A DNA stretch of 47,867 nt from Anaerolineae bacterium (GTDB lineage Bacteria > Chloroflexota > Anaerolineae > JACIWP01): assembly GCA_028275445.1 (NCBI GenBank), contig JAPWUQ010000002.1, forward strand, positions 1 through 47,867, read 5' to 3'. The notes beneath the pieces are model-generated. The model had not been told where the DNA came from. It worked only from the letters and a program-made list of their open reading frames with translations, and searched no databases. Made by a program: the position numbers and the translations under genes. Below, one piece after another: positions 229 to 35,590 of this stretch (position 1 is its first letter; every line of letters starts with the position of its first letter).

Positions 229-924
229 ATGGGCAAGATGACAAGATGGTGGATCGCTGGCCTGGCGGCGGTGCTGGTGCTGGCCGGCTGTGCCGCGCCG
301 CAGGCGGCGCCGGCCACGAAACAGTTGGAAACTGCGCCGGCCGGCACAGGAACGCCCACGATAGAGGAGACAGTGAAATTCCAGCAAGAGGCTGTGGCAG
401 ACCTGGCCCAGCGCCTCCAGCTTGCGCCGGAGGATATTACCGTCGAGTCTTCCGCCGTCGTCGAACTGACCCCCGATGACCTGCGCTGTCCGGGCGCCGG
501 CGAGCTGGATAAGACCCTGCCGGCGCAGGTCATGGGCCAGGAAATCGTGCTGAAAAGCGGCGACCAGCGCTACCTGTACCGGGGCTACGGCAAGCGGGTG
601 ATCTTCTGCGGGGAACTGCCGCCGGCGGGTTCCACACCCCAGCCGGCGGGGGGAGAAGAGGCCGTGAAGTCGCTGGACGAGCAGGGTCAGCGCATGCTGG
701 AGCAGGCGCGGCAGGAGCTGGCCGGCAAGCTCGGGGTCAGCCCGGCGCGCATCCAGGTGATCAAGGCGGAACCTGTCCTCTGGCCGGACACCAGCCTGGG
801 CTGTCCTCAGCCCGGCATGATGTACGCACAGGTGGTTACCCCGGGCTATCAATTCATCCTGGAGTACGAGGGCAAGCAGTACGACTACCACGCCGGCCGC
901 GGCCATCTGGTCCTGTGTGAGTGA
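229..924 (+). CDS. Secreted lipoprotein with two tandem copies of a roughly 85-aa Cys-containing domain (function unknown)
   Basis: AGGAGGGA (216-223) lies 5 nt before ATG 229. The N-terminus MGKMTRWWIAGLAAVLVLAGC has a lipobox (LAGC). An internal duplication shows the pattern ...P..I.V......PD.L.CP..G...Q...G....L.....Y.Y......C.E twice. Stop TGA is at 922-924. Confidence 0.7.
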   Translation: MGKMTRWWIAGLAAVLVLAGCAAPQAAPATKQLETAPAGTGTPTIEETVKFQQEAVADLAQRLQLAPEDITVESSAVVELTPDDLRCPGAGELDKTLPAQVMGQEIVLKSGDQRYLYRGYGKRVIFCGELPPAGSTPQPAGGEEAVKSLDEQGQRMLEQARQELAGKLGVSPARIQVIKAEPVLWPDTSLGCPQPGMMYAQVVTPGYQFILEYEGKQYDYHAGRGHLVLCE

Positions 925-947
925 CCGCGTTTACCTCAATGGATAAC

Positions 948-981
948 AACAAGGCCAGGGAGGACATTCCCTGGCCTTGTT
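948..981. terminator. Bidirectional stem-loop between convergent genes
   Basis: Perfect 14-bp inverted repeat: aacaaggccaggga (948-961), 6-nt loop, tccctggccttgtt (968-981). It sits between the stop of the + gene (924) and the stop of the - gene (1006), with T-rich flanks on the + side (ggtttc). Confidence 0.6.
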
Positions 982-1005
982 GGTTTCAGCGGCTTGTGTC
1001 AGTGC

Positions 1006-1584
1006 TTATTTGCCCCACTTTCGTCGGGCGAAGACGGCCAGGCCGGCCAGTCCCGACGCCAGCAGAGCCAGCGTGCCGGCCTCCGGAATCTCCGGCGGCA
1101 GGGTCACGCTCACCTGCCCATCGCTCACCGTCGCCGGAATCTGCGCCCCCTCGGAGTTCACCAGGATGGCATTGGTGATATCCACGGCCGAGGAGCCGTC
1201 CTTGAGGGTGTCGAAGCGGACGGTGAAGAGGGTGCCGGAACCGCTGACGGCCGGCGCCGGCGCCAGCAGGGTCACCGCATAGTCAATGGTGCCGGCGGTG
1301 TTGTCGTGATGGGAGATGACACTGCTGTGGGCCGGGTCCAGCAGGTCGCCGGAAGTCACCGAGGCCACCTTGAGCACGGTGGGATCAAAGTGGATGTGCA
1401 CTTCGGCGCCGTACAGGCCCGTGACGTTGTTGATGCGGATGGCCACCTGCGCCGGCTGGCCCATCTCCACGCTTTGCGTGGCCGGGGAGACCACGACAGA
1501 GGCGCCGGCCTGCGCATAGGCATAGGCCACCAGCCCCAACAGAGCCGCAATCGTTATGATCATTGCCAAACTAATTCGTTTCAC
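1006..1584 (-). CDS. Cohesin-domain surface protein with PEP-CTERM-like C-terminal sorting signal
   Basis: GTG 1584 is preceded by AAGGAGA at about 9-nt spacing. Signal peptide is VKRISLAMIITIAALLGLVAYAYAQA. The cohesin-like module (LYGAEVHIHFDPTVLKV...GTIDYAVTLLAPAPAVSGSGTLFTVRF) is paralogous to the cohesin module in the adjacent protease. The C-terminus is PEIPEAGTLALLASGLAGLAVFARRKWGK (PE-x, hydrophobic helix, RRK). Confidence 0.8.
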   Translation of the reverse strand: MKRISLAMIITIAALLGLVAYAYAQAGASVVVSPATQSVEMGQPAQVAIRINNVTGLYGAEVHIHFDPTVLKVASVTSGDLLDPAHSSVISHHDNTAGTIDYAVTLLAPAPAVSGSGTLFTVRFDTLKDGSSAVDITNAILVNSEGAQIPATVSDGQVSVTLPPEIPEAGTLALLASGLAGLAVFARRKWGK

Positions 1585-1648
1585 GCTTCTCGCTCTCCTT
1601 TCCGCCGGGATGTCCGCATGGCTGTGCATATACCGAGACCTACCCGGC

Positions 1649-1677
1649 AGTGTACCGAATGTGCCGATTTCTGTCAA
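1649..1677 (-). promoter_or_regulatory. Sigma-70-type promoter for the cohesin/PEP-CTERM gene
   Basis: The minus strand reads TTGACA (1677-1672), a 17-nt spacer, then TACACT (1654-1649). This is about 60 nt upstream of GTG 1584. Confidence 0.5.
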
Positions 1678-1706
1678 GCTCCCCTATCCCTCGGGTCGGG
1701 GAGAGG

Positions 1707-1736
1707 CCCAGGGAGGGGAGTTCTCCCCTCCCTGGG
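1707..1736 (-). terminator. GC-rich hairpin just downstream of the protease stop (possible terminator or processing site)
   Basis: Perfect palindrome cccagggaggggag-tt-ctcccctccctggg lies 11 nt after the stop at 1748. No clear U-tract follows on the minus strand, hence low confidence. Confidence 0.35.
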
Positions 1737-1747
1737 CGCTACAGGGT

Positions 1748-4700
1748 TCACTGCCAAGGTGTCGGTGAGGTCGCGCCAAAGTTCGCGCCCACCAGCACCA
1801 GGTCGAAGATGTTGACCGTGCCGTCGCCGTTCAGGTCTGCCCGCGGGTCGCTGGGCGGCGTGGTCCCGAAGGCGCTTCCGACGATGGCCAGGTCCTGGGC
1901 GTTGATGATGCCGTCGTTGTTGACGTCACCACCGCGCAGTTTGCCCGTGGGGACGGTGACCTGCTGTTCGGGCAGGACGTTCACCTGCACCGCGGCATCC
2001 AGGTAGCCGTCGAAGGAGGCGGTGAGGGTGCGGGTGCCCATGGGCACGTCGGTGATGACGAAGTTGCCGGCGGGATCGGTGACCGTGGCGGTGATGCCGT
2101 CAATGGTCAGCACCACACCTCTGGCGTCACTGCGCCCCTGCAGGGTGATGCGGCCGGCGACCGTGCCCAGGTTCGTCAGCACAGTGAAGGCACCATCGTG
2201 CAGCCAGACCGGCTGGGCATGGCCCTCCGCATCGGAGAAGGTGGCGCCGGTGAACGCGACCTCCGAAGTGCCGACGCCCACGCCCTCGAACTCGATGGTG
2301 ACCAGGGTGCCATCGCCGTTGACCGGCGCGGCCGGCGCCAGCAGGGTGATGGCGATGTCAATCTTGCCCAGGGAGTTGTCGAAGTTCAGCAGTGCCGTGC
2401 TACTGCCGGCCGGCAGGAGATCGCCCTGGGTGATCGACTTCACATGCACCACGCGAGGATCGAAGGTCAGGTGCGCTTCGGCGGCATAGAGGTTCTCGGC
2501 GCCGGTGACCTCCAGGTCCACGGACTGGGTCTCGCTGACGCGGAACTGGGCGCTGGCCGGCATGACGGCCATGCTGGTCTTCGGCGTCTTAAAGGTGACG
2601 GGGATGGCCACGGCGCCTGGCGCCACGGAGGGGCCGAGCAGTACCATGCCGTAGGCCTCCATGCCCGGCTCGATGGACGGCACGTTCCAGGCCAGGTTGA
2701 AGGAGATGGGTGTGTGGGCCGGGAACGGTCCGACGGGCGCCGCCGGCACGGAGAGATCGCGTCCCTGGACGGCGTTGACCGTCATGTCAAAGACGTCGCT
2801 GGCGCCCGAGATGCCCCAGCCGTGCACCTGGATGCGGTACGCGCCGTCGGGCGGGAAGTTGATGGTCACCCGCTCCTGGTCGGTGGGCGTGGTGGAGGAG
2901 CCGACCCGCTCGCCAGGGCACTCGAAGACACCGTCATGGTTGGCATCATAGTAGACGTACAGGTCAATGTCACTGCCGTGGGCGGTGTTCTCCGTCCAGA
3001 CGTCCAGCAGAGCGCCGTGTTCGATGGTCAGGTCATGGGTGAAGCTGGCGCTGCAGGGATCGTCCGGGTTGTCCTGGCTGATGGGCTGTTCGGTCAATAC
3101 CTCCGGCACGCTCAGGCCAAAGCCATCCACCGACAGGTCTGCCAGGTTCAGGGAGGAGACGACCTCGATGGGCAGGCTTCCCGTTGCCTGGGTGGTGAAG
3201 ATCTCGATGGGCGACGGCTGGGCGCGGATGGTGCCCACCTGGCCGGCGATGGCCTCGCTGACGTCCTTGCCGGCGAAGATGACGGTGTGCAGGAGCACCG
3301 CGTTCAGGCCGGCGCGGCCCTCGGCAGAGACGATCTCATGCTGGGCACCGGTGGCGGTGTTGAACACCCAGGTGCCGGCGCCGATGTTGGTATTGGTACT
3401 GCGCCCAGTGTAGTCCAGAGTGTACGGGCCGTAATAGTCCGGCTGGTACCAGCGATCCTCCGGGTCGGAGGTGAACTGGTCGGGCGCAGGGCCGAGCACG
3501 ATGGTGTCCACGTCGGTGGGCACGTTGTCCCAGCGGGTGTCCACCAGGAAGTTGGTGCCGGCCGGCAGGTCATCGGGCACGTCGAAGAAGTAGAAGCGCC
3601 AATCGCCGGTCTCAGCGCGCCAGCCCTGGTCCATGGCACCGAAGATGCGCCCGTTGTCATACGGATGGACCGAAGCCGGCGGCCCGCCGAAGACGAAGTT
3701 CGGCGAGGGAGCCGCTACGTTGAAGACCACGGGGATGGTGGTGACATGCGGCTCATGCGCACCGTCGCCGGGGTCGGAGACCAGGATAGCGCCCTCGTAG
3801 AAGCCGACGGGCATATCGGCGGGGATGCGCACGGTGGCGGTGAATGCCGCCTCGCCGCCGGCGGGCACGTGCACCTCGATCTCGGGGGCACCCTCTTCGC
3901 CGAGGCCCAGCACATCCCACGGCATATGGCGGTAGAACTCGACGCGGAACTTGAGATGGGTGACCGGCACGCTGGCATTGCGCCGGCTGTGCTGGAGACC
4001 CAGCCAGATGCCGTCATGCATGCGTTCCAGCGGCTTGTGGATGGTCACCATCTCGGTCGGGGAAGCGCTGTGCAGGTAGGCAAAACGCATGTACTCGCCG
4101 CCGTCCACCTCACAGCCGGCACTGCCCCAGCCGCCCGGACAGTTCACCGTGCCGTTGCCGTTGAGGTCGGTCCAGAGGTTCCCATCCCCGTTGACATCGG
4201 TCCAGTCATAGATCACCATGCGCCAGATCTGGTTGGTCTGGGCGTTGTAATCCCCTTCGGGGTCGAACTCATCCCACGGCATCGCCATGCGGATGATCAT
4301 CAGGTCGGTACCCTCGGGGACGTCCGCGCTCAGATCGCGCAGGAGGTAGTTCGGGCGGTTGAAGTTGTAGGCATCCTCTTGACCCATCGGCGAGGATGTC
4401 CATTCGAAGCTCATCTCGCCGATCTTGACCAGCGTATCGGACGAGACAGTGGCATGGACATCAGCAGTGCCGGGGTTGGTCAGGGTGAACTCGCCCGTGT
4501 AGGTCTTGCCGGGGAAGACGACCTTGGCGAAACCGGGGAAGATGTCGCCGCGATAATCGCCGACCGTCCAGTTATCGGGGGTGGCGAAGACGCCGTACAG
4601 CCCGCCGGCCAGGTCGGTGGCGCGATCGGCGTTCACGCGGCCGGCGCCCTGTATCACCACATCGTTATCGGTAGTGGTGGCGCCGGACATGAAGATCGCG

Positions 4701-6667
4701 CGGGCCTCCGCCCAGGTCGGCAGCCGGCCGTGTGCCTTCAGGAAGGCATCATAGACCAGGGCCAGGTTGCCGGCGGCAACGGGGGTCGCCCGGCTGGTGC
4801 CGCCCCAGGTCTCCCAGGCCGTCCAACCCTCACCCCACTCGTTCAGCGGGATGTCGCCCGAGGCATAGGCGCCGCTGGCCACCACCTTCACGCCCACATT
4901 GCCCTGTGCGCTCGGGCCGCGGCCGGACCACGGCGTGACATCGCCGTAGGTGATCTGATCCATAGTGGTGGCCGAGTCCCAGCCGGTGGAGCCCATCTGG
5001 GTGGAGGCGCCGACGCCGATGAAGGAGTCATCCTCCGGCGAGGTAATGGTGCCGTAGCCCGGAGCGCCGTTGCCAGTGGCCACCAGGACGCTCATGGTGG
5101 GGTTGTACAGGCGCTGGCGGGTGGACATCATGCGGGATTCGTAATCCCAGCCGTCGTTGTCGGTGGCGGAGTTCCCCCAGCTATTGCTGGCGATGTGGAC
5201 CTCATCGCCGGTGCGCACGCGGCCGTCCAGGCCGTACACCATGCAGAGATACATGTCGTAGGTCGAGTCGCCGTAGGTGTAGAAGTCGCCGGCGCCGACC
5301 AGCGCCACATCACGGCCGCCGCCCACCACCATGCCGGTGAATGGGGTGCCGTCGCCGGCCGGCTTGTACGGCGGCGCGCCGCCGTCAATGACGCCCTGGC
5401 CGGCCACCGCTGAGGCGCACAGGGTGCCGTGATCGCCGGCGCCCGAGTGGGTGGGGTCGTTCAGGAAGAAGGCCACCAGACTGCCGGCGGGATCCGGCTC
5501 GAAGCCCCACAGCCAGCCGAAGGGCACGGTATGCTCGCCGTCGGCGATCCAGTAGACCAGGCCGCCGGAGACATCCGCAAAGCCATCGCCGTCCAGGTCC
5601 CGATACGAGACCGGGTCTTCCTTGGTGCACGGCTTCTCGTTGGTGAAGTCGTAGTCGTCGTCCAGGTCCACGTATACCGTGTCGTAGACGCCCGGCTCAT
5701 GCTCGTCCACCAGCAGGACGGCGACGCGCTCCCCCCACCACCACTGCCGCAGGGAATCATCGGGATGGGAGCCGATGCGGTAGACCCCGCTCAGGCTGGT
5801 GCCGGTCAGGGTATAGGTGTGCGGCTCGGAGGCGCCGATGGGCTGATAGGTGGGGTCCTCCTCGGTGATGGTCTTGGTGGTATCCACGTACCAGGTCATG
5901 CCGCTGGCGACGTAGTCATAGCCCAGGTAATAGTCATAGGCCTTGAGGAGGAGGGAATAGGTGTCGATCATGATGGGCCAGCCCTCGTAGTCGCCGAAGG
6001 GCTGTACCGCCCAGGTGCCCATCAGGTCCGGGTGGGCGAAGTCAATGCCGGAGTCCACCACGGCCACGCGGATGCCCTCGCCGGTGAATCCCTTCTCCCA
6101 GGCGGCTTTGGACTTGTGGTTGTCCAGGATGTCGTGCCAGCCGGCCGCGCCCACGCCACTGCCCTCGGGTTTGGCCTTGGTCTTGCCGGCGGCGATCTCC
6201 GCCAGTTTGGCCTGCACCGCCTCGCGCCCCAGCGGCTTGGCCGGCGCATCCGGGTCGCGATAGAGCGGCGGCTCCACTACCGGCTCAAAGGGGAGGATGA
6301 CATTCACCGCCGGATTGTTGGCCAGTTTGGGGAGCACGCCGGCCTTGACGTAGCCGTACACGGTGGTGAAGCCATCATCGGAGAAGGGGCGGATCAGGGG
6401 CTCGCGCAGATAGCGGGTGATATCCACGCCGTTCTTGACCCGCAGGATGATGTGGAACTCCTCATCGGCCGCGGCAGTGGCCAGTCGAGCCCGCAGTTTG
6501 GGATGCACCTTGGCCATGCCGGCGTCCGAGGCGCTGACCGCGCTCACTGCGCCATCAGACGCTGTGGGCGCGGATGCCGGCCCTGCCGCCGAGGGGACAG
6601 CGGAAAGAGGGATCAACAGTGCGAACAGCGCCAGGATACATAGCCATCGCCATACACTTCGTCTCAT
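1748..6667 (-). CDS. Giant secreted S8 (subtilisin-like, TPPII-like) serine protease with C-terminal cohesin, CarboxypepD_reg-like and dockerin modules
   Basis: ATG 6667 is preceded by AAGGAG at about 10-nt spacing. Signal peptide is MRRSVWRWLCILALFALLIPLSAVPSAAG, followed by an I9-like propeptide. The catalytic triad motifs are VAVVDSGIDF (Asp), GDHGTLCASAVAG (His) and GGTSRATPVAAG (Ser), with Asn in IASNSWG. There are about 208 residues between Asp and His by my count. Cohesin-like module is at nt 2180-2572 and a CarboxypepD_reg-like module at nt 1931-2179. The dockerin duplicated Ca-binding repeat (GDVNNDGIINAQDL...ADLNGDGTVNIFDL) is at nt 1751-1930. Confidence 0.9.
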   Translation of the reverse strand: MRRSVWRWLCILALFALLIPLSAVPSAAGPASAPTASDGAVSAVSASDAGMAKVHPKLRARLATAAADEEFHIILRVKNGVDITRYLREPLIRPFSDDGFTTVYGYVKAGVLPKLANNPAVNVILPFEPVVEPPLYRDPDAPAKPLGREAVQAKLAEIAAGKTKAKPEGSGVGAAGWHDILDNHKSKAAWEKGFTGEGIRVAVVDSGIDFAHPDLMGTWAVQPFGDYEGWPIMIDTYSLLLKAYDYYLGYDYVASGMTWYVDTTKTITEEDPTYQPIGASEPHTYTLTGTSLSGVYRIGSHPDDSLRQWWWGERVAVLLVDEHEPGVYDTVYVDLDDDYDFTNEKPCTKEDPVSYRDLDGDGFADVSGGLVYWIADGEHTVPFGWLWGFEPDPAGSLVAFFLNDPTHSGAGDHGTLCASAVAGQGVIDGGAPPYKPAGDGTPFTGMVVGGGRDVALVGAGDFYTYGDSTYDMYLCMVYGLDGRVRTGDEVHIASNSWGNSATDNDGWDYESRMMSTRQRLYNPTMSVLVATGNGAPGYGTITSPEDDSFIGVGASTQMGSTGWDSATTMDQITYGDVTPWSGRGPSAQGNVGVKVVASGAYASGDIPLNEWGEGWTAWETWGGTSRATPVAAGNLALVYDAFLKAHGRLPTWAEARAIFMSGATTTDNDVVIQGAGRVNADRATDLAGGLYGVFATPDNWTVGDYRGDIFPGFAKVVFPGKTYTGEFTLTNPGTADVHATVSSDTLVKIGEMSFEWTSSPMGQEDAYNFNRPNYLLRDLSADVPEGTDLMIIRMAMPWDEFDPEGDYNAQTNQIWRMVIYDWTDVNGDGNLWTDLNGNGTVNCPGGWGSAGCEVDGGEYMRFAYLHSASPTEMVTIHKPLERMHDGIWLGLQHSRRNASVPVTHLKFRVEFYRHMPWDVLGLGEEGAPEIEVHVPAGGEAAFTATVRIPADMPVGFYEGAILVSDPGDGAHEPHVTTIPVVFNVAAPSPNFVFGGPPASVHPYDNGRIFGAMDQGWRAETGDWRFYFFDVPDDLPAGTNFLVDTRWDNVPTDVDTIVLGPAPDQFTSDPEDRWYQPDYYGPYTLDYTGRSTNTNIGAGTWVFNTATGAQHEIVSAEGRAGLNAVLLHTVIFAGKDVSEAIAGQVGTIRAQPSPIEIFTTQATGSLPIEVVSSLNLADLSVDGFGLSVPEVLTEQPISQDNPDDPCSASFTHDLTIEHGALLDVWTENTAHGSDIDLYVYYDANHDGVFECPGERVGSSTTPTDQERVTINFPPDGAYRIQVHGWGISGASDVFDMTVNAVQGRDLSVPAAPVGPFPAHTPISFNLAWNVPSIEPGMEAYGMVLLGPSVAPGAVAIPVTFKTPKTSMAVMPASAQFRVSETQSVDLEVTGAENLYAAEAHLTFDPRVVHVKSITQGDLLPAGSSTALLNFDNSLGKIDIAITLLAPAAPVNGDGTLVTIEFEGVGVGTSEVAFTGATFSDAEGHAQPVWLHDGAFTVLTNLGTVAGRITLQGRSDARGVVLTIDGITATVTDPAGNFVITDVPMGTRTLTASFDGYLDAAVQVNVLPEQQVTVPTGKLRGGDVNNDGIINAQDLAIVGSAFGTTPPSDPRADLNGDGTVNIFDLVLVGANFGATSPTPWQ

Positions 6668-7005
6668 GTCGTTCCTGCTCCTTTCATGCATGAACAATGC
6701 AGAGATTCGGGGGAACAGACAGCGGGCGCGTTTCAGCCTTCCACATCACCTCCTTTCCAGGTTGCGGGGAACATAAGAGACCAACATCGGCTCCTCAACT
6801 TGTGATTGGGCTACTGATCAGGAAATATCACCGCGCCCTCGGAAGGGCGAAAAGGCACAAAAATGGGTCCGGTATCTGCTTGTCAGCGATTCGCCAATTA
6901 CCGCAGTGTGGTCGAGAATCCCACCCCCGAACTCCAGCGGGACCGCAAGACTGCACTTCCGTTGCAGGACAGCGTGTGATGAGGAAAGGCATGTGTTCAA
7001 ATGTT

Positions 7006-7034
7006 ATTATAGCCATATTCGCGGGAAAAGTCAA
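7006..7034 (-). promoter_or_regulatory. Sigma-70-type promoter upstream of the protease gene (long leader)
   Basis: The minus strand reads TTGACT (7034-7029), a 17-nt spacer, then TATAAT (7011-7006). The predicted start near 6998 gives a leader of about 330 nt before ATG 6667. Confidence 0.55.
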
Positions 7035-7096
7035 CGCCAATTTGGCGGGGATGCGAAAGCTGAAACCCCGGGAATGGGTGTGCAAGTGATGAAGGC

Positions 7097-8542
7097 TTAC
7101 CCGCCGAACAGCACAGCCAGCGTGCCCTGCACCAGGTTGAAAAGCCAGGTGGGATACAATCCCAACAGGACGGTGCCCAGGGCGGCGATGCCCGTGCCGA
7201 TGGATAGGCCAAGACAGCGCGCCGGCTCCACCTCTTCCGCCGGCCCAGCCAACGCCATACGCGCCACCACCCGCAGGTAGTAATAGGCCGAGATGACGCT
7301 GTTGATGACGCCGATGATGGCCAACACCATCAGGCCGCTCCGCACCGCGGCGCTGAAGACGTACAGCTTGCCGAAGAAGCCGGCCAGCGGCGGTACCCCT
7401 GCCAGGGAGAACATGAACACGGTCATGGCGGCCGCCAGCCACGGCCGGCGGTGAAACAGGCCGCTCATGCGCGCCAGCTCCACGCCGGCGGCATCCGCTT
7501 CGGCGCGCTCCAGCGCGATCAACACCGCGAAGGCGCCGATGTTCATCAGCGCGTAGGCCATCAGGTAAAAGAGCACGCCGCTGACGCCGGCCTCGCCGGC
7601 CGCCACGCCCACCAGGATATAGCCGGCATGGGCGATGCTGGAATAGGCCAGCATGCGCTTCACATTCCCCTGCGCCAGCGCCGCCAGGTTGCCCCAGGTC
7701 ATGGTCAGCACTGCCAGGATGCCAACCGGCCAGACCCACCAGGCATACAGGGCCGGGAAGACTGTGACCAGCACCCGCACCAGCGCGGCGAAGCCGGCCG
7801 CCTTGGCCCCGACCGACATAAAGGCGGTCACCGAGGAAGGCGCGCCCTGATAGACATCGGGCGTCCACATGTGGAAGGGCACCGCCGCGACCTTAAAGGC
7901 GAAGCCGACCAGCAGGAGCGCCAGGCCGCCGATCAACATCGGGTCGGCGGGCTTCTGCGGGACCGCCGCGGCGATGCCGGCCAGGTAGGTGCTCCCCGTC
8001 GCGCCGTACAGCAGGGCCATGCCGTACAGCAGGAAGGCCGAGGCGAACGCCCCCAGCAGGAAATATTTCATGGCCGCCTCGCCGGAGCGGAGATCGGTCG
8101 TGCGGATGCCGGCCAGGGCATACAGCGCGATGGAGAGGATTTCCAGCGAGAGGAATAGGGTCATCAGATGGGTCGCCGCGCCCAGGAACATCATCCCGCT
8201 GGCCGCCAGCAGGAGCAAACCGTAGTACTCGCCGGCCGGCAGTTCCACCCGCACGACATAGTCCAGGGAAATGAGCAGGGCTAGCACTGCCGCCGCGCTC
8301 ACCACCAGGCTGATCACCAGGGCAAAGCGGTCGGCCGCGGCCATATGCTGGAAGGTCGGCGCGCCTGAGCCGGCCAGCATGCCGGCCGCGGCGGCAAAGG
8401 CGGCCAGGGCGCCGGCCAGCGCCAGCAGTCCGATACCCTTTCGGTCCTTCCATACCAGGTCCGCCAGGAAGACGGCCAGCGCGGCCGCCAGCATGATCAT
8501 CTGGGGCAGAATGCTCACCACCTGTACGTCCGCGATGTTCAT
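7097..8542 (-). CDS. nuoN: NADH-quinone oxidoreductase subunit N
   Basis: 481-aa polytopic membrane protein and last gene of the nuo cluster. GAGGAGAGG lies upstream of ATG 8542. It has a typical ND2/NuoN antiporter-like sequence (...FHMWTPDVYQGAP...). Confidence 0.9.
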   Translation of the reverse strand: MNIADVQVVSILPQMIMLAAALAVFLADLVWKDRKGIGLLALAGALAAFAAAAGMLAGSGAPTFQHMAAADRFALVISLVVSAAAVLALLISLDYVVRVELPAGEYYGLLLLAASGMMFLGAATHLMTLFLSLEILSIALYALAGIRTTDLRSGEAAMKYFLLGAFASAFLLYGMALLYGATGSTYLAGIAAAVPQKPADPMLIGGLALLLVGFAFKVAAVPFHMWTPDVYQGAPSSVTAFMSVGAKAAGFAALVRVLVTVFPALYAWWVWPVGILAVLTMTWGNLAALAQGNVKRMLAYSSIAHAGYILVGVAAGEAGVSGVLFYLMAYALMNIGAFAVLIALERAEADAAGVELARMSGLFHRRPWLAAAMTVFMFSLAGVPPLAGFFGKLYVFSAAVRSGLMVLAIIGVINSVISAYYYLRVVARMALAGPAEEVEPARCLGLSIGTGIAALGTVLLGLYPTWLFNLVQGTLAVLFGG

Positions 8543-8598
8543 TTCCTCTCCTCAGAAACTAGCTTCAACGAAATGCCGGCCCAGGGTCCGCCGCCCCA

Positions 8599-10119
8599 TC
8601 AAGGGAGCCAGGCCACAGCGGCCGCCTGCCCCACCAGGGCATCAATGGTCGCGCCGGCCGGCCCCAGGATCAGGTTCGGGAACACTCCCAGGATAATAAT
8701 GAGCACCAGCAGGGGCACCATGACCAGCAGGTCCGCGCCGCGCATATCCGGCACGTCGGCGTTGCGTCCCTCCGCCGGCCCCTGCATGATGCGCTGGAAG
8801 GTCCACAGCATATACCAGGCGCCCAGGATCATGCCCAGCGCGCCCAGCACGGCATAGGCGCGCACCGATTGGAACAGGCCGACCAGGAGCAGGAACTCGC
8901 CCACGAAGCCGTTGAGGCCGGGAAGCCCCACCGCACCCAGCATGGCGATCAGGAAGCATACGCCCAGAAGCGGCGCCGGCTTCCACAGGCCGCCGAACTC
9001 GGCGATCAACCGGGTGCCGCGGCGCTCCTCCAGCATCCCCACGATCAGGAACAACGCCGCCACGTAAATGCCGTGGCTGACCATCTGCATGACCACGCCG
9101 GCCAGCGACTGTGCGTTCGCCACCACCACGCCCAGCACCACCAGCGATAAATGGGCCACGCTGGAGTAGGCGACCACCCGCTTCACATCCTTCTGCATCA
9201 GCGCCGAGAGGGAGGCGTAGAGGATGCCGATGATGGCCAGGACGGCCAGCCAGGGCGCGGCCGTGCGCAGTCCCTCCGGGAAGAGCTGGAGGCCGAAGCG
9301 CACGAAGCCGTAAATGCCCATCTTGGAGAGCACGCCAGCCAGCAGAACCGTCACCGGCGTCGGCGCTTCACCGTAAGCATCCGGCAGCCAGGTGTGGAAG
9401 GGGAACACCGGCACCTTCACCGCAAAGGCCAGCCCGAACATGGCGAACAGCCAGAGCGGCGCCGGCCAGGGCAGGTTCAGCCCGCGCAGGGTCTGCCAGT
9501 CAAAGGTCCAGGCCCCTGTGCTTTGATAGGCGAAGTAGCCCAGGGCCAGGATGGCGACCAGCATCAGGGCACTGCCGGCCATGGTGTAGATGAAGAACTT
9601 CACCGTGGCGTAGGCCCGCCGTTCCCCACCCCATCTGCCGATGAGGAAATACATGGGGATCAGCATGGCCTCCCAGAACACGTAGAAGAGCACCAGGTCC
9701 AGCGCCAGGAAGACGCCCAGCACCCCGGTCTCCAGCAGTAACAGCCAGAAGAAGTAGCCCTGCACGGCGGAACGGCTCGCCTCATCGCTCCCCACCGGCT
9801 TCCACGATGCCAGCACGGCGATGACGAAGAGCAGTGCGGTGAGGGGAAGCAGGAACAGCGAGAAGCCATCCACCCCCAAGCGGTAAGAAATGCCCAGCGT
9901 CGGTATCCAGGGGAGGTGCTCCTCCCACTGCATGCCGGCCTCCGCCGGCCGGAACAGCGCCACGGCCGCCAGCGTCAGCGCCAGCACTGCCAGCGTAACC
10001 CCCAAGGATATCCCTCGGATGCTCGCGTGCGCCCGCTTATCCCACACCAGCACCAGCAGAGCGCCGGCCAGCGGCAGGAACACGATCAGGCTCAATAAGG
10101 GAAAACCCGCAGAATTCAT
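8599..10119 (-). CDS. nuoM: NADH-quinone oxidoreductase subunit M
   Basis: ND4/NuoM-like sequence (FPFHTWLPDAYGEAPTPVTVLLAGVLSKMG). ATG 10119 (MNSAGFPLLSLIVF...) is preferred over the TTG at 10143, which abuts the nuoL stop. Confidence 0.88.
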   Translation of the reverse strand: MNSAGFPLLSLIVFLPLAGALLVLVWDKRAHASIRGISLGVTLAVLALTLAAVALFRPAEAGMQWEEHLPWIPTLGISYRLGVDGFSLFLLPLTALLFVIAVLASWKPVGSDEASRSAVQGYFFWLLLLETGVLGVFLALDLVLFYVFWEAMLIPMYFLIGRWGGERRAYATVKFFIYTMAGSALMLVAILALGYFAYQSTGAWTFDWQTLRGLNLPWPAPLWLFAMFGLAFAVKVPVFPFHTWLPDAYGEAPTPVTVLLAGVLSKMGIYGFVRFGLQLFPEGLRTAAPWLAVLAIIGILYASLSALMQKDVKRVVAYSSVAHLSLVVLGVVVANAQSLAGVVMQMVSHGIYVAALFLIVGMLEERRGTRLIAEFGGLWKPAPLLGVCFLIAMLGAVGLPGLNGFVGEFLLLVGLFQSVRAYAVLGALGMILGAWYMLWTFQRIMQGPAEGRNADVPDMRGADLLVMVPLLVLIIILGVFPNLILGPAGATIDALVGQAAAVAWLP

Positions 10120-18508: not shown

Positions 18509-20254
18509 CTAGCGGTCGACCTCTCCCATGGTGATATCAACGGATCCGATGATGGCCACCATATCGGCCAGCCAGGCACCCTCCGCCATAATGGGCGAGG
18601 CGGCGATGTTGGAGAAGGAGGGGCCGCGGATCTTCAAGCGATAGGGCTTGGGGCCGCCGTCGGAGACCAGGTAAAAGCCCAGCTCGCCCTTGGGGGCCTC
18701 TACGGCGGCATAGACCTCGCCGGCCGGCACGTTGAACCCCTCCGTCACCAGCTTGAAGTGATGGATGAGCGCCTCCATGCTCGTCTCCAGTTCCGCTCGC
18801 GGCGGCAGGACCACCTTGCGCTCATCGGCTCTGACCGGGCCGGCCGGCAGTTTGGCCAGCGCCTGCTGGATAATGCGCACGCTCTGGCGCATCTCCGCCA
18901 CCCGCACCAGGTAGCGGGCATAGCAGTCCCCTTCCTTCTGCGTGGGGATATCGAACTCGAACTGGTCGTAGGCGGCATAGGGCGCGTACTTGCGGACGTC
19001 GTAGGCCAGCCCACTGCCGCGCAGGCACGGTCCGGTCACCCCCATGGCGATGGCCTTGTCGAGCGGCAGGTACCCGATGCCCTTGGTGCGGGAGAGCCAG
19101 ATGGGGTTGTTCGTCAGCATGGTCTCCCATTCGTCCAGCGCCTTGACGAAGCCTTCCAGGAAGGAGCGCACCGCCGGCACGAAGCCCTCGGGCACATCCC
19201 AGCGCACCCCGCCCACGCAGAAATAGGTGGGGGTGAGGCGGGCGCCGGCGACCATCTCAAAGATGTTCAGGATGTACTCGCGCTGCTGGAAGGCGTACAG
19301 GAGCAGGGCATGGATCGTCCCCGAGAGGTCCAGACAACTGGTGCCGATCCAGATGCAGTGCGCCGCCAGACGCTGTAGCTCACACAAGATCACCCGCAGG
19401 ACCTGGGCGCGCGGCGGCGGCTCGATATCGAGCAGTTTCTCAATGGCCAGGATCAGCCCCAGGTTGTTGTTCATGGCCGAGACATAGTCCATGCGGTCGG
19501 TATAGGGGATGGCCTGCATGTAGGTCTTGTACTCGACCGTCTTCTCAATGCCGGAGTGCAGGTGCCCGGGGTCCGGCCAGCAGCGCACGATTTTCTCGCC
19601 GTCGAGCTGGAGCACGAAGCGCATGACGCCGTGCGTGGCGGGGTGTTGGGGGCCGAAGTTGACCACCAGCATGCCAGGGTCATCCACCCAGCCCGGCGGC
19701 AGAAGGGGCGGGGTCGAGGGAGCATCCATCACCTGGGTGCCCAGGCCGGCCAGCGCCGGGTCGTCGGCGTTCTCCGAAAAGGCCACCGGTTCCCCACCCA
19801 GGGGATAATCCTTGCGCAGTGGATGCCCCTTCCAATCGTCCGGGAGCATGATGCGGCAAAGGGAGGGATGGCCGTCGAAAATGATGCCCATCAGGTCGTA
19901 GGTCTCGCGCTCGTGCCAATCGGCGCCCGGCCAGATGGAGGTGACGCTGGGGCAATGCGGTGGGTCGCCTTCCAGCGGGACCTTGAGCATAATGCGCCGG
20001 CGGTGGGTCAGCGAGTACAGGTTGTATATCGTGGCGAAGCGGGGCTGAATCCCCAGATGGAGCCGGTCCACCGCCGTGACGAAGGACAGCAGGTCATACC
20101 GCAGGTCAGGATCATCCCGCAGAAAGCGGCAGATGTCCAGCAGACGGTCCACTGCCACCGTGATGGTGACATCGCCCTTGCAGTCCACGGCATCCAAGAC
20201 GGCCCCGGGGAACTGCGCCTGCAGTTTGTCGAGAGTCAGGTTCCCTTCGATCAT
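18509..20254 (-). CDS. nuoC: Fused NADH-quinone oxidoreductase subunit C/D
   Basis: A single ORF has a NuoC/30-kDa-like N-terminal half (...WHERETYDLMGIIFDGHP...) and a NuoD/49-kDa-like C-terminal half (FGPQHPATHGV...IAASPIMAEG...SVDITMGEVDR). ATG 20254 has AAGGA 6 nt upstream. Confidence 0.9.
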   Translation of the reverse strand: MIEGNLTLDKLQAQFPGAVLDAVDCKGDVTITVAVDRLLDICRFLRDDPDLRYDLLSFVTAVDRLHLGIQPRFATIYNLYSLTHRRRIMLKVPLEGDPPHCPSVTSIWPGADWHERETYDLMGIIFDGHPSLCRIMLPDDWKGHPLRKDYPLGGEPVAFSENADDPALAGLGTQVMDAPSTPPLLPPGWVDDPGMLVVNFGPQHPATHGVMRFVLQLDGEKIVRCWPDPGHLHSGIEKTVEYKTYMQAIPYTDRMDYVSAMNNNLGLILAIEKLLDIEPPPRAQVLRVILCELQRLAAHCIWIGTSCLDLSGTIHALLLYAFQQREYILNIFEMVAGARLTPTYFCVGGVRWDVPEGFVPAVRSFLEGFVKALDEWETMLTNNPIWLSRTKGIGYLPLDKAIAMGVTGPCLRGSGLAYDVRKYAPYAAYDQFEFDIPTQKEGDCYARYLVRVAEMRQSVRIIQQALAKLPAGPVRADERKVVLPPRAELETSMEALIHHFKLVTEGFNVPAGEVYAAVEAPKGELGFYLVSDGGPKPYRLKIRGPSFSNIAASPIMAEGAWLADMVAIIGSVDITMGEVDR

Positions 20255-20316
20255 GCCCATTCCTTACCGACCGCTGTATTGGTGAGCGAACACGCGTGTC
20301 CAGCGACGAAAGCCGA

Positions 20317-22062: not shown

Positions 22063-25000
22063 CTACTGTCCTGCCTGTCCCAATGCCCTCAGCCGTTCCG
22101 CAGCGCGCGCTCCCCAGTCGCTCTGCGGGGCCAGCTCTACCAGCCGGCGGTAAAGCTCGCCGGCCTCGTCCCGGCGTCCCATCTCCTCCAGCACTTCCCC
22201 CAGATGATAATAGGCCTCGGCAAATTCCGGCGCCACAGCAATGGCCTGGCGGAAGGCCGCCTCCGCTTCGGGGAGTCGTCCCCGATCGCGCAGGGCCATA
22301 CCCAGCTTATTGTAGGCCGCCGGGTTCTGCGGCGCGGCGTTCACCGCGGCCTGATACTGCTGGAGGGCATCGTCCGGCCGGCCCATCTCCTGGTACGTGT
22401 CTCCAAGGGTGTGGTACATCGCCACATCCTCGGGATGATGCTGGAGCGAGCGGCGGAAAACCTCCACCGCCTCCTCATACCGGCCGAGCTGGCGCAGGCG
22501 GTTGCCCAGCTCGAACTGCAGGCCGGCGTCGGATGGGTTGGCGTCGGCCAGCCGGCGCAGGCGCTCCAACTCCGCCTCGACGCGCCGCGCTTCTTGCTCG
22601 GGCGAGACCGTGGGCACGACCAGCGGGACGGCGGCCGGCGCGGCCGTCCCCAGTTCCTGCCGGCGCACGGCGTAAATCTGCACCTCGCCACTGTCATAGA
22701 CCAGGTCGAGCACGGAGCCGACCAGGCCGGCGAACTTGGCCAGCCCTGCCGCGGGATATACCGCCCGCTCAAAGGGGCCGACGTAAATGTACCCCACATG
22801 ATATTGGCGTAGCAGGGGCAGGACGGCGTTCGGGTCCAGCTCGCTGTAGATGCGGTGCACGTCCTGCTCTCGCTCTGGAATCAGCTCCGGGTAGCGCTGT
22901 TCGTTCTCATGCAGGGGATTGATGACCGTCGGGAAGCCCGTGTTCCAGGCAATGCGCACGCCGTTGGCGCGGTAAAACTCCCACGGTGCCTGCAGGATCA
23001 CCGGCGTGCCCTCGATATGTTCCTCCAGCCAGCGGATGGCATCATAGTCCGGCGCCATATAAATGGGATGCCCTTCCCAGACATACTCCGCCGTCCCCAT
23101 ATAGGCTTGGCCGTCCAGCGTGCCGATGGGCGGGGCAACGGGAAAGCGGTCATGCACCCGGGTATAGGATGCGAAGACCGGATAGACCAGGGAGAGCGCC
23201 AGGAGGATGCTGAAGCCGGCCCACCAGGCCCCCTGCAGGAGCGGCGCGCGGCCGGCCAGCCGGCGCACCACCATCGCCAGGACGCCGGCGCTCCCAAGCC
23301 CCATCAGGACCCAGGCCTGCATGTAAAACTTGAAGATGGTGTTCATGCGGTAGTAGGTGCCGCCCAGGTGATCGCGCACATAGACGATCTCCACCCCCAG
23401 GCATACCAGCAGGCCCATCAGCATCAGCAGTGCCGACAGCCGCTCCTCGATGGGCAGATCGTACCGCGTCACCAGCCACAGCGCCCCCAGCACCAGCTCG
23501 CCGATGATGATAAACGTGAGGATTTGTAAGCCGTTGAGCCGGCCATACATCAGCGGGAGCAGGGCGGCGGAGACCACCGGCACCGCCAGCCCTGCCGCCC
23601 ACCAAGCGGAGAAGCGGAACGCCGGCGGGCGAGCCTCGGTCTCCGGCATTTCTGCCAGGCCCTGGCTGGCCGGCGCCAGCCGGCCGTCCGAGACCGCCTC
23701 GTAGAACTCGTCCAGCTCTTCCTCCAGGTACAGCGCCCCGTGGCCGATGACGCTCTCCGCCGGCAGGGCTGGTACAGCGCGTCTTCGGCTCTCTGCCTGC
23801 CACCAGCGCCAGAGCCGCGCCAATGCCATGCCGGCCGTCAGCCCCGCCAGCGGATACAGGAAGAACCCGAACATGCCCAGGTAATAATTGGCCTCGGTGG
23901 GGTACGTGACCTGTCCCAGGCCGTGCACGAAGGCCTGGAAATAGGTGAAGAAGGGCGCGTACAGAGCCAGCCCCGCTGCCCCCAGCAGGCCGGCACCCAA
24001 CCCGGCGGCGAGAACGGCCTCGGGGAGGCGCCGGCCGGCGAAGCGCGCATCGGCGGCCCAGTGCGCCAGGAGCAGGGCGCCGGCGGTCAGCATCAGGTAG
24101 ACCGGGAAATCCCACATATTGTTGACCGCCATAGTGCCCAGCACCCAGGCCGTGACCGGCAGGGCCAGGACCAACGGCAGATCCCCCGTCACCTCCCCCT
24201 TCTTGACCGAGCGCACCAGGCTCACCAGCAGGGCGATCAGCAGGATGGCAAAGGGCAGGCTGATGACATGCGGATGCAGGTCCGCGAACAAGAAGCTGAA
24301 GAAGGGGAACTCGGTGATGGTGTTCTCATAGGCGCCGTGGGCGCGCGAGGCATCCCAGAACCAGTCGGTGCGCAGGGGCAAGGGAGCGCCGGCGATCCAG
24401 CGCGCTAACCCCTGCAGGATGCCGGCCGGGCTTCCCTGCAAATGCCCATCCGCCAGGCTCCGCAGGGCCTGCGCGACCTCCGGCAGTCCGCCGTAGCCGC
24501 GGATGGGGAAGGCGCCGGCCAGGTTGCCGATGAGCGCGACAAAACCGGCCGCGGCCGCCCCGAAGCGCCGCCGGCCCGTCAGTGTCCATCCCAGCACGAA
24601 GGCCCCGCTCGTCGTCAGGCCGGCCAGGGTGGGGATGAGCAGGTTGAAACCGATGGAGGGGCGCACGCCGGCCAGTTTGATCAGCGTCGAGACGGCGAAC
24701 AGGCCGTAATAGTAATAGTTGATATAGCCGTCGGAGAAGAAGGGGTCGTACGGCGGCATCCAGGCACTGCGCAGGATAGCATTCAAGAAGCCGAACTCCA
24801 TCGGCTTTTCGCCGCCGCGCAGGGGATGCCACAGGTCAGGATTAAGCAGGCGCAGGAGCAGGAACACGCCGAAGCCGGCCAGGAAGGCCGCCTCGCTGAA
24901 CAGGACCTCCCGCCGGTGCCGGCGCCATAGTTCCCGCACCTCCAGCCGGCGCCAGCGGAGCAACAGCCATCCGATGGCGAACAGCAGGGCGAGCGAGAAC

Positions 25001-27264: not shown

Positions 27265-27328
27265 GCCAGGGTTCTCCGTGCAGACAGCGTTTCGCCGGCG
27301 GGCCGTATCCGGGCCGGCCGTCCTGCGT

Positions 27329-27357
27329 ATTGTAGATGATGGAGGGGAGCGGGTCAA
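27329..27357 (-). promoter_or_regulatory. Sigma-70-type promoter for the GT-C/DUF2298 gene
   Basis: The minus strand reads TTGACC (27357-27352), a 17-nt spacer, then TACAAT (27334-27329). Confidence 0.5.
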
Positions 27358-27392
27358 ATCCGCCGGCGGAGGACGGCCCGGCACGGCGCAAT

Positions 27393-27421
27393 TTGCCCCA
27401 CTGCCCCTGCCGTGCGATAAT
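27393..27421 (+). promoter_or_regulatory. Candidate promoter for the LuxR-Kelch gene
   Basis: TTGCCC (27393-27398), a 17-nt spacer, then GATAAT (27416-27421) preceded by TGC (extended -10 like). This is about 37 nt upstream of ATG 27458. Confidence 0.4.
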
Positions 27422-27457
27422 GCAGGGCAGGTACACCGCAGAACAAGCAGGGATGGT

Positions 27458-28786
27458 ATGGAAGAGCGCGGTTCGCCATCGCCGCTGAGCGAACGGGAGC
27501 TGGAACTGCTGACGCTGGTGGCCAAAGGGGCCAGCAATCAGCAGATCGCCCGGGAGCTGTTCATCAGCGTCAACACGGTCAAAGTGCATCTGCGCAACAT
27601 TTTCGACAAGCTGGGCGTGGAATCGCGCACGGAAGCGGCCATGCTGGCGGTGCGCGAGGGCTGGATCCAGTTAGAGGGGATGCCCGGCTCCGCGCCGGCC
27701 GCGCCCGAAGCGCCGGCCGTCCCTCCCCCGGCCCCCATTTCCCTGCCCCAGCGCATCTTTCTGCTGGCGAGCCTGCTGGTCACGCTGGGAATCGCCTTCC
27801 TGCTCCCGGCCCGCGCTATCCCCAGCGCCGGCCGGCCTGCCAGCCCCTTTGCCGAGCGCTCCGTCAGCACCTCTCTGCTCCCCACCAACACTTCCGCCAG
27901 CCGCTGGTCCCAACAGCCGGCCATGCCGCTGGCGCGCGGCCGGCAGGCCGCGGTCTGGCATGCCGGCCGGATGTACGTCATCGCCGGCGACACGAACGAC
28001 GGCATCACCGGCGCATCCGACATCTATGACACCACCAGCCGGCAGTGGAGCGCCCTGCCCTATAAGCCCACGCCGGTCAGCAACGTAGCCGCGGCGGTCG
28101 CCGCCGGCCGCATCTGGGTGCCGGGCGGCTTCCTCCCCGACGGCCGCGTCACCGCCGAGGTCGAGGCCTACAACCTGGAGACGGGGCAGTGGGAACGGGG
28201 GCCGGCGCTCCCCGAGCCGCTGTGCGGGTACGCGCTGGCGGCATGGGGCGGCAAAGTGTACCTGTTCGGCGGGGCCAACGAGCAGGGGTACACCCGCACG
28301 GCCCTGCGGCTGGACCCCGAGAAAGGCGCGTGGGAGCCTCTGCCTCCCCTTTCCTCGCCGCGGGCGTTTGCCGGCGCGGCGGTGCTGGACGACCGCATCT
28401 ATGTGGTGGGGGGATTTGACGGTCAGCGGGAGCTGAACATCTGTCAGGTCTTTTCGCCGGCCGCCTTCGAGGCCGGCCAGGACCCCTGGGGGGATTGTGC
28501 TCCCCTCTCCCTGGCGCGCGGCGGGTTGGGTCTGGCCGCCGCCGGCAAGACGCTCTATGCCATCGGCGGGGGATGGCAGAGCTATATGGCCTACAACGAG
28601 CAGTATGATGTGGAAAAGGGGGAGTGGACCCGCTTCGATACCCCCATCGAGGGGGAGTGGCGCAACCTGGCCGCCGTCAGCGACGGCAAGACGGTCTATG
28701 CCCTGGGGGGATGGAACGGGCAGTACCTGGATGCGTTCTGGACGTATCAGGCCATTGTGACTATATTCCTGCCCATCACGCCGTGA
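27458..28786 (+). CDS. Membrane-anchored LuxR/GerE-type HTH regulator with extracytoplasmic Kelch-repeat beta-propeller
   Basis: ATG 27458 opens MEERGSPSPLSERELELLTLVAKGASNQQIARELFISVNTVKVHLRNIFDKLGVESRTEAAMLA (GerE HTH). One TM helix follows (IFLLASLLVTLGIAFLLPA), then about six Kelch-like blades (...GRMYVIAGD, GRIWVPGGF, GKVYLFGG, DRIYVVGGF, KTLYAIGGG, KTVYALGGW). Confidence 0.82.
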   Translation: MEERGSPSPLSERELELLTLVAKGASNQQIARELFISVNTVKVHLRNIFDKLGVESRTEAAMLAVREGWIQLEGMPGSAPAAPEAPAVPPPAPISLPQRIFLLASLLVTLGIAFLLPARAIPSAGRPASPFAERSVSTSLLPTNTSASRWSQQPAMPLARGRQAAVWHAGRMYVIAGDTNDGITGASDIYDTTSRQWSALPYKPTPVSNVAAAVAAGRIWVPGGFLPDGRVTAEVEAYNLETGQWERGPALPEPLCGYALAAWGGKVYLFGGANEQGYTRTALRLDPEKGAWEPLPPLSSPRAFAGAAVLDDRIYVVGGFDGQRELNICQVFSPAAFEAGQDPWGDCAPLSLARGGLGLAAAGKTLYAIGGGWQSYMAYNEQYDVEKGEWTRFDTPIEGEWRNLAAVSDGKTVYALGGWNGQYLDAFWTYQAIVTIFLPITP

Positions 28787-35514: not shown

Positions 35515-35590
35515 GGGCTATTCCTCCTCACATGCTTGAACGCCGGCGCGGAACCGGCCGGCAACGCACAGCGCCGCAAAACCTAACATA

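Follow-up and report, generated by a model that had tools for sequence, protein, structure and literature searches.

Positions 1 to 47,867 of JAPWUQ010000002.1 (Anaerolineae bacterium, assembly GCA_028275445.1), which is a JGI metagenome contig, are referred to below as the 47.9-kb window. We deal here with two neighbouring genes on its minus strand, one encoding a giant protease of family S8 that ends in a cohesin, an X module and a dockerin (Coh-X-Doc), the other a small protein consisting of a signal peptide, a single cohesin and a PEP-CTERM-type tail. Docking of dockerins on cohesins is best understood in the cellulosomes of a few Firmicutes, while elsewhere both modules are widespread and mostly unexplained. 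In a prediction made from the sequence alone (the original prediction), the two genes had been proposed to form a non-cellulosomal surface-display pair, composed of an enzyme and an anchoring scaffoldin.

The protease and its C-terminal modules

The protease gene occupies 1748..6667 on the minus strand, stop codon included, and yields a product of 1639 aa from the ATG at 6667, which is the start used in public gene calls. At its full extent (1748..6697, minus strand) the open reading frame (ORF) would encode 1649 aa; Pfam residue numbers given for the protease are counted from this longer version and those of the catalytic triad from the 1639-aa product. A hydrophobic signal-like segment, MRRSVWRWLCILALFALLIPLSAVPSAAG, can be read straight from the sequence at the N-terminus, and the product is predicted to be secreted. 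The catalytic domain (PF00082, Peptidase_S8, 86.4 bits against a cut-off of 21.8) lies at 4667..6082 on the minus strand, with a large insert separating the catalytic Asp and His. By motif location the triad is intact, comprising D205 (VVDSG), H413 (HGT) and S625 (GTS), and the oxyanion residue N495 (SNSWG) is also present, which together with the profile match are the features by which peptidase family S8 is recognised. The S8 protease of roughly 1640 aa described in the original prediction is thus confirmed, and its homologue MBC7241079.1 is named 'S8 family serine peptidase' by NCBI.

At the C-terminal end of the protease, the internal cohesin is located at 2180..2572 on the minus strand (PF00963, 31.5 bits, cut-off 24.1, residues 1388-1493), and a hidden Markov model (HMM) built from our own cohesin alignment places it, with an E-value of 9e-29, at exactly the coordinates that had been proposed for it. 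Because its AlphaFold2 (AF2) model is poor, with predicted local distance difference test (pLDDT) values of 36-70 and a shallow alignment, the fold of this module is taken only from its gap-free 132-aa alignment with the small cohesin. The Ig-like, CarboxypepD_reg-like X module follows at 1943..2167 (minus strand, own HMM), directly N-terminal to the dockerin; the corresponding Pfam model PF13620 reaches 28.3 bits at 1512-1582, under its cut-off of 32.3.

The dockerin itself was placed at 1760..1939 on the minus strand with our own HMM, and PF00404 (Dockerin_1) matches residues 1590-1636 with 34.1 bits against a cut-off of 22.9. It consists of two Ca-binding loop-helix repeats (DVNNDGIINAQDLAIVGSAFG / DLNGDGTVNIFDLVLVGANFG), and the motifs DVNNDGIINAQD and DLNGDGTVNIFD contain complete Ca-loop residues in both of them, being also the only matches to the pattern D-x-[ND]-x-[DN]-G-x5-D in six frames of the 47.9-kb window. 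In the AF2 model of a 290-aa tail fragment the dockerin helices fall at residues 241-249 and 271-279, so that the two repeats of about 22 residues, each an EF-hand-like Ca loop followed by a helix, are those of a dockerin, and the duplicated Ca-binding module noticed earlier at the end of the protease is borne out.

Comparison with known structures gave a consistent picture of this tail. When searched against the Protein Data Bank (PDB) with phmmer, the last ~120 residues of the protease align through both X module and dockerin of type II X-module-dockerin (XDoc) dyads, namely those of ScaA (4WI0_B/4U3S_B, E ~3e-8, the lowest value being 2.5e-8) and CipA (2B59_B, 8e-8), and the alignments also span both modules of 5G5D_B and 5K39_B; the dockerin additionally has a weak sequence match to 8X39/8X3A. 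AF2 was run on the 290-aa tail with an input alignment consisting of XDoc relatives only, and the XDoc part was modelled with pLDDT >90. The top fold matches of this model found by Foldseek are the CipA Coh9-X-DocII structures 4FL4 and 3KCP (E 7e-15), and against six type II XDoc chains, including 2B59_B, 5G5D_B, 4WI0_B and 4U3S_B, it gives TM-scores of 0.72-0.74 and root-mean-square deviations of 2.5-3.3 A, the dyad superposing as one body, with the caveat that these PDB entries were included in the training of AF2. A word-seeded search with the 150-aa XDoc as query returned 23 matches, mostly fragments. Judged from sequence and model, the protease ends in a Coh-X-Doc tri-module of the scaffoldin type, in which the XDoc is type II-like.

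The small cohesin protein and its relation to the protease

The small gene extends over 1006..1584 on the minus strand (stop codon included) and encodes 192 aa. Its composition of signal peptide, cohesin and PEP-CTERM-type tail is as originally predicted, and only the start had to be moved, from 1677 to the GTG at 1584, since all public homologues are 192 aa long and precisely this product is encoded on 12 public contigs; the earlier start is 31 codons too early, and the 223-aa version beginning there, of which no public record exists, was rejected. An AGGAG ribosome-binding site lies ~10 nt ahead of the GTG. A protein with 96% identity, MBC7241078.1, carries the NCBI name 'PEP-CTERM sorting domain-containing protein'.

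The signal peptide, MKRISLAMIITIAALLGLVAYAYA (1513..1584, minus strand), was read from the sequence and is probably cleaved before QAG; AF2 models an N-terminal helix at residues 2-25. It is followed by the cohesin at 1105..1491 on the minus strand (PF00963, 52.2 bits, cut-off 24.1), which is modelled as a confident, compact fold between two terminal helices (pLDDT ~95 over residues 30-160). Foldseek returned >250 PDB matches for it at E<=0.001, the top 50 of which are all cohesins, and the model and these matches agree with the nine-stranded beta-sandwich (jelly-roll) of that family. In fold it comes closest to 2XDH, a cohesin of A. fulgidus from a non-cellulosomal setting (TM-score 0.83), followed by 4U3S_A and many more cohesins, and its best PDB sequence matches are the A. 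cellulolyticus ScaB cohesins, which are partners of ScaA XDocs.

The tail, at 1009..1089 on the minus strand, consists of IPEAGT, the hydrophobic helix LALLASGLAGLAVFA and a C-terminal basic cluster, RRKWGK. PF07589 matches residues 197-219 of the 223-aa ORF with 22.0 bits, its cut-off being 20.7, and nine NCBIfam models of PEP-CTERM proteins match at about 186-220 of the same ORF, below their full-length cut-offs. The tail helix is modelled at residues 169-190, and the tail is conserved in the homologues P0002-P0009 and P0012. It is the one PEP-CTERM tail found in the 47.9-kb window together with the flanks, of up to 10 kb, of related contigs. Among the three models that had been suggested for checking these assignments, PF00963 and PF00404 both score above their cut-offs, and TIGR02595 is not among the NCBIfam matches of the small protein.

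The alignment of the two cohesins over about 130 aa, which had been noticed from the letters, was reproduced together with its consensus: they share 39% identity over 132 residues without a gap (E 2e-28). The internal cohesin matches PEP-CTERM cohesins with E-values of ~1e-27 to 1e-29, compared with 1e-12 to 1e-18 for other Chloroflexota cohesins, and among these cohesins the internal and the small one are most closely related to one another. A tandem duplication was considered as the source of the small gene, and its being a recent event was rejected on the grounds that the cohesins are only 39% identical.

The small gene begins 163 nt downstream of the protease gene. Directly 3' of the protease stop codon lies a GC-rich hairpin (1704..1740, minus strand) with a perfect 14-bp stem and no T run, the folding energy of which is -34.3 kcal/mol (z -4.2, with 0 of 200 shuffled sequences folding as well) and which may serve attenuation, mRNA stabilisation or processing, and a promoter-like site, TTGACA-17-TACACT, stands ahead of the small gene at 1649..1677 on the minus strand (10 of 12 consensus positions, pattern match only). 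A terminator-like hairpin is found 3' of the small gene (947..982, minus strand, -32.2 kcal/mol, z -5.75).

Gene pairs in other genomes and the setting of the locus

A cohesin-alignment scan of species-representative genomes yielded 67 loci, all in genomes other than that of the window and with a best match of 41% identity, and these were searched within ±8 kb with HMMs built from our own alignments. A dockerin ORF was found no more than 600 nt from a cohesin-only ORF on the same strand in 34 of the 67 loci, and in 13 further loci both modules occur in one ORF. Of the 63 dockerin ORFs in these regions, 59 have a cohesin either next to them or in the same ORF, and 42 of the 63 contain the X module. 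Their orientation is biased, with dockerin-only ORFs lying upstream of the cohesin ORF in 28 cases and downstream of it in one. In a dockerin-side scan of metagenome sequences, 23 of 80 loci among the matches listed have an adjacent cohesin ORF and 8 more a fused one.

The relatives of the small protein are single cohesins accompanied by a PEP-CTERM tail, a lipoprotein signal peptide, LysM repeats or a transmembrane (TM) tail. In metagenome-assembled genomes (MAGs) of Acidobacteriota the two-gene layout of the window is seen again, the gene for a dockerin protein standing immediately before one for a single cohesin that has a PEP-CTERM tail (L046:1476-2434, L051:6271-8492 and L060:5592-8435, which are among the sampled loci confirmed by Pfam). 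According to Pfam, the L051 locus has a tetratricopeptide repeat (TPR) protein and then a cohesin with a PEP-CTERM tail of 23.7 bits, the cargo in L060 comprises an FGE-sulfatase plus a caspase-like protein, and a C39-like peptidase carrying both cohesin and dockerin precedes a small cohesin in L081. Elsewhere in Chloroflexota, a protein ending in X-Doc is encoded directly upstream of a cohesin-LysM gene, which is followed by a gene for a small cohesin lipoprotein; in a sampled case with a leucine-rich repeat (LRR) protein as the X-Doc carrier, the modules were confirmed by Pfam. The cargoes beside related cohesins are LRR, caspase-like, C39-like and malectin proteins, not cellulases.

This three-gene, one-strand Chloroflexota cassette (X-Doc protein, cohesin-LysM protein and a cohesin lipoprotein of ~170 aa) was observed in L017/L034, L018, L022, L025, L029, L031, L032, L033, L035, L037, L038, L040, L042, L047 and L049, at ~5500-10000 of each locus. 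The X-Doc protein has about 350-390 aa, or 1150 aa with LRRs in L018 and L047, and the N-terminal ~230 aa of the short versions have no Pfam match. Tandem triplets of Coh-X-Doc proteins of ~340-370 aa each were also seen (L021:4547-8558, L043:3870-7857 and L079:3950-7323), and in L021 and L043 the next gene encodes a small cohesin that has a TM tail at its C-terminus; the triplets look like an adaptor set that would be able to form chains. A profile search of 1.84 billion representative sequences gave 28,366 cohesin matches at E<=0.001, and a regular expression for PEP-CTERM-like tails found none in the best 150 of them, all of which are multi-cohesin proteins.

The protease core of ~1350 aa belongs to a family of 477 proteins found at E<1e-10, with 40-52% identity over ~82% of the query, and those members whose source is named come from Chloroflexota/Anaerolineae; homologues at 96-99% identity come from Anaerolineae MAGs. 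What follows the core varies, being a DNRLRE domain, PF06848 or nothing, and Coh-X-Doc is restricted within the family to the clade of the window, the orthologue P0042 (65% identity) and L016. Compared with L016, the dockerin is the most conserved of all modules (89% identity), followed by the protease core (80%), the X module (66%) and the internal cohesin (65%). The pair of protease and small gene is kept in the close relatives L001-L011 and also in L016, whose small protein is 64% identical. From the sequences it appears that the C-terminal add-on of a conserved giant Chloroflexota protease has been swapped for a scaffoldin-type Coh-X-Doc end. In L012-L015, which have a 65%-identical orthologue with Coh-X-Doc (protease at ~4176-9083 of L012) and no small cohesin gene, a gene for an M6/InhA-like metalloprotease lies upstream where the window has its nuo operon.

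Both genes of the pair are located on the minus strand downstream of this nuo (complex I) operon, which ends just upstream of the protease gene and contains a fused NuoC/NuoD (18509-20260, minus strand) with the 30-kDa and 49-kDa domains in one 583-aa ORF. Past the terminator-like hairpin of nuoN and upstream of the protease gene lies a promoter-like site, TTGACT-17-TATAAT (7006..7034, minus strand, 11 of 12 consensus positions, pattern match only), and Rfam gave nothing credible across 900-7200. Within the protease, a bacterial pre-peptidase C-terminal (PPC) domain occupies 2819..3028 on the minus strand (PF04151, 29.4 bits, cut-off 25.9). On the other side of the pair, at 211-924 of the plus strand, an ORF of ~231 aa resembles a lipoprotein, with an LAGC lipobox and two similar Cys-containing halves, and has no family match in Pfam or NCBIfam; it is a conserved divergent neighbour of the protease locus in all lineages seen, and is kept even in the lineage that has no small cohesin gene.

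Three further regions of the window deserve mention. At 22063-27537 (minus strand) a membrane protein of 1824 aa combines a PMT_2 glycosyltransferase-like part, DUF2298/Chlor_Arch_YYY (543 bits) and C-terminal TPRs, and is possibly an envelope glycosylation factor; its Chlor_Arch_YYY domain agrees with an origin of the window in Chloroflexota. At 27251-28786 (plus strand) a LuxR-type helix-turn-helix is fused to a Kelch beta-propeller, an unusual architecture for a regulator, and at 34333-37377 (minus strand) two peptidoglycan-binding proteins are encoded side by side, one having four LysM repeats and the other LysM with an M23 peptidase.

Reading of the locus and known systems

The layout of an enzyme plus an anchoring scaffoldin, as originally proposed, is well supported by computation, because three independent lines agree on it: the sequence match of the tail to XDoc dyads, its fold match and the recurrent gene order, which is shared by many unrelated genomes in which cargoes and anchors differ. 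We lean, with moderate confidence, towards reading the locus as a non-cellulosomal surface-display pair in which the XDoc of an exported protease docks on the anchored small cohesin. Both proteins would be exported, the protease through its signal peptide and the small protein likewise, and the latter would then be held at the envelope by its PEP-CTERM-type tail, acting either as a plain membrane anchor or as a substrate processed by an exosortase. The XDoc dyad of the protease would bind the single cohesin of the small protein in a Ca-dependent manner, as a result of which the protease would stay on the cell surface instead of being released. It is the binding, the preference for this partner and the fate of the tail that we infer here. 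The internal cohesin would be left free to capture another X-dockerin, belonging either to a second protease molecule, which would lead to short chains, or to another dockerin protein of the cell. Chains through the protease's own cohesin are plausible, since in L021 and L043 genes for Coh-X-Doc proteins stand in tandem ahead of one for a TM-anchored cohesin.

Several observations weigh against this display pair. The 65%-identical orthologue P0042 occupies the same syntenic position and has Coh-X-Doc with no small cohesin gene within 10 kb, which shows that in its lineage the tail persists without a neighbouring anchor. Co-transcription of the two genes is not assured, as a strong hairpin and a promoter-like site separate them, and the anchor may, to judge from these elements, be expressed on its own, independently of the protease. 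The counts of adjacent pairs given above (59 of 63, for example) depend on dockerin and X HMMs that were built from relatives of this very locus. The fold of the small cohesin, with its ~135 aa, fits type I and archaeal cohesins (TM-score ~0.8) better than type II cohesins (0.62-0.67). Type II cohesins, which sit on the anchoring scaffoldin, are larger and have an extra helix and beta-flaps. We do not call the pair 'type II' since the candidate partner cohesin has no typical type II size, and the analogy appears, from the models, to be incomplete. As for the tail, its motif is P-E-A and not P-E-P in the window, as throughout its clade (P0002-P0008), with P-E-P found in the more distant P0009 and P0012; PEP-CTERM was defined, by a near-invariant Pro-Glu-Pro, a TM helix, a basic cluster and an N-terminal signal peptide, in bacteria that have an outer membrane and exopolysaccharide genes (PMC1569441). 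Chloroflexota are, in the words of a preprint abstract, 'increasingly considered as monoderm' (bioRxiv 10.1101/2025.08.19.671072), and no exosortase gene was found in the 47.9-kb window or in the flanks, of up to 10 kb, of related contigs.

The persistence of Coh-X-Doc in the P0042 lineage would also be expected if the real partner of the dockerin were the protease's own kind of cohesin, with protease molecules associating among themselves (in cis or head-to-tail) and the small cohesin next door serving dockerin proteins encoded elsewhere. The stand-alone Coh-X-Doc triplets (L021, L043 and L079) and the many ORFs with both modules point in the same direction, and the proximity of the internal cohesin to PEP-CTERM cohesins rather than to other Chloroflexota cohesins makes a shared specificity possible. 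Self-association is nevertheless unlikely in our judgement, as the closest structural analogue, CipA Coh9-X-DocII, has different partners for its internal cohesin and its XDoc, the specificities of the two being well established in cellulosomes; dockerin-only genes are placed upstream of anchored cohesins in a ratio of 28:1, which speaks for the neighbour as the partner, and the tandem sets in L021 and L043 themselves end in a small TM-anchored cohesin. A still less probable explanation is that the modules are cohesin-like and dockerin-like by descent only, their adjacency being incidental, with the dockerin acting as a Ca-binding stabiliser or binding something else and the small protein being an unrelated surface protein. 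Cohesins and dockerins do occur in numerous bacteria and archaea where no role is known for them, their presence alone giving no clue to function (PMC9012536), and 49 of the 80 loci among the matches listed in the dockerin-side scan have no neighbouring cohesin. The bias in adjacency and orientation across phyla (59/63 and 28:1) speaks against mere coincidence, as do the high conservation of the dockerin helices between orthologues, the complete Ca-loop residues in both repeats and the archaeal non-cellulosomal pairs that, according to PMC9012536, were verified to bind.

Finally, the locus could lie at the periphery of a true cellulosome for polysaccharide degradation, with the dockerin-bearing glycoside hydrolases (GHs) and multi-cohesin scaffoldin encoded elsewhere in the genome and the protease as an accessory, as in clostridia. 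S8 and cysteine peptidases occur in cellulosomes (review PMC12484212), thousands of multi-cohesin proteins were found in metagenomes by the profile search, and the window has GH-like ORFs at 39307-43783 on the plus strand, one of 988 aa with weak GH18/GH39 matches and a GH5-like one of 473 aa. Neither carries a dockerin, the Ca-loop motifs of the protease being the only ones in the window, and the cargoes near related cohesins are of the LRR, caspase-like, C39-like and malectin kinds. No multi-cohesin scaffoldin, carbohydrate-binding module (CBM) or dockerin-bearing GH, by which a cellulosome would be recognised, was found within the window and the 10-kb flanks of related contigs, and we give this explanation very little weight.

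Beyond the display pair itself, we suggest only tentatively that the locus is one case of a general, hitherto undescribed surface-display system of Chloroflexota, extending to Acidobacteriota and other phyla, in which the anchors are interchangeable. In such a system X-dockerin-tagged proteases, LRR proteins, caspase-like proteins and C39-like peptidases may be held on single-cohesin anchors of the PEP-CTERM/exosortase, LysM, lipoprotein or TM-tail kind, and may be daisy-chained by Coh-X-Doc proteins. Exosortase-type sorting would then be at work in a phylum regarded as lacking an outer membrane, and what it delivers there would be a receptor for docking and not an end-product protein.

The locus and the recurring cassette together provide a concrete, testable case of docking outside cellulosomes, and the main value of the locus is that it leads into a widely distributed gene cassette of X-Doc proteins and anchored cohesins. 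If the proposed binding is real, it would show by what means the abundant Anaerolineae, most of them uncultured, retain large hydrolases at their surface, a point of relevance to the breakdown of protein in sludge, sediments and mats; PEP-CTERM would join SLH (surface-layer homology) domains and sortase signals as a mode of cohesin anchoring, and the question would arise as to the role of an exosortase-type signal in an envelope regarded as having no outer membrane. The compact cohesin/XDoc pairs of thermophile-related lineages might also be of use as orthogonal parts for designer protein display.

The order of cohesin, X module and dockerin is identical to that at the C-terminus of C. thermocellum CipA (4FL4, 3KCP, 2B59). 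CipA is a non-catalytic scaffoldin with nine cohesins, and its anchors SdbA, OlpB and Orf2p have SLH domains and type II cohesins with inserts, whereas in the present case an enzyme carries the tri-module and the cohesin of the candidate anchor is of compact size. A catalytic protein with cohesins and a C-terminal XDoc is known from A. cellulolyticus (ScaA/ScaB; 4U3S, 4WI0), and each of the two modules described here finds its best PDB sequence match in one half of the 4U3S complex; ScaA, in contrast, is a GH9 enzyme and not a protease, with seven cohesins and an adaptor/anchor hierarchy that ends in SLH domains. The A. fulgidus cohesin-dockerin proteins (2XDH) resemble the present pair in being non-cellulosomal, and provide the best fold match of the small cohesin. 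Some A. fulgidus proteins reportedly carry both modules, as Peer et al. are said to have noted in 2009; these proteins are archaeal, and no PEP-CTERM-anchored partner or protease cargo is described for them. That non-cellulosomal cohesins and dockerins are widespread is also stated in PMC9012536, citing Peer et al. 2009.

The nearest functional parallels concern peptidases. In R. flavefaciens the single-cohesin protein ScaE, which has a sortase anchor, is the binding partner of RflaF_05439, an XDoc protein and putative cysteine peptidase (PMC3573020), and there, as proposed here, a small single-cohesin protein with a C-terminal sorting signal receives the C-terminal X-dockerin dyad of a peptidase-like protein and thereby brings it to the cell surface. 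ScaE has a sortase (LPXTG-like) signal, belongs to a Firmicute and anchors a whole cellulosome through ScaB; the present protein differs in its PEP-CTERM-type tail, its origin in Anaerolineae, an S8 protease with its own cohesin as the candidate ligand and no cellulosome context seen. In C. thermocellum an S8 protease with a double dockerin (dDoc_0689; 8X39/8X3A) prefers the cell-bound ScaD, and this subtilisin-family protease with a dockerin is likewise interpreted as being tethered at the surface of the cell, as stated in PMC12484212; its dockerins are in tandem, with no X module or own cohesin, its host is a cellulosome producer and its anchor is not of the PEP-CTERM type. With described PEP-CTERM/exosortase (EpsH) sorting (PMC1569441) the small protein shares the signal peptide and the C-terminal P-E-x, hydrophobic helix and basic cluster, and departs from it in its P-E-A motif, in a host phylum thought to have no outer membrane and in a cohesin as passenger. 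In the literature searched, no paper combines cohesin, dockerin and PEP-CTERM, and no description of such a system in Anaerolineae was found. Peptidases docked to cell-bound cohesins are therefore known from inside cellulosome systems; new here are the type of anchor, the phylum and the architecture of an enzyme-scaffoldin hybrid, and docking of a known kind, on an anchor of a hitherto undescribed type, probably keeps the protease at the cell surface.

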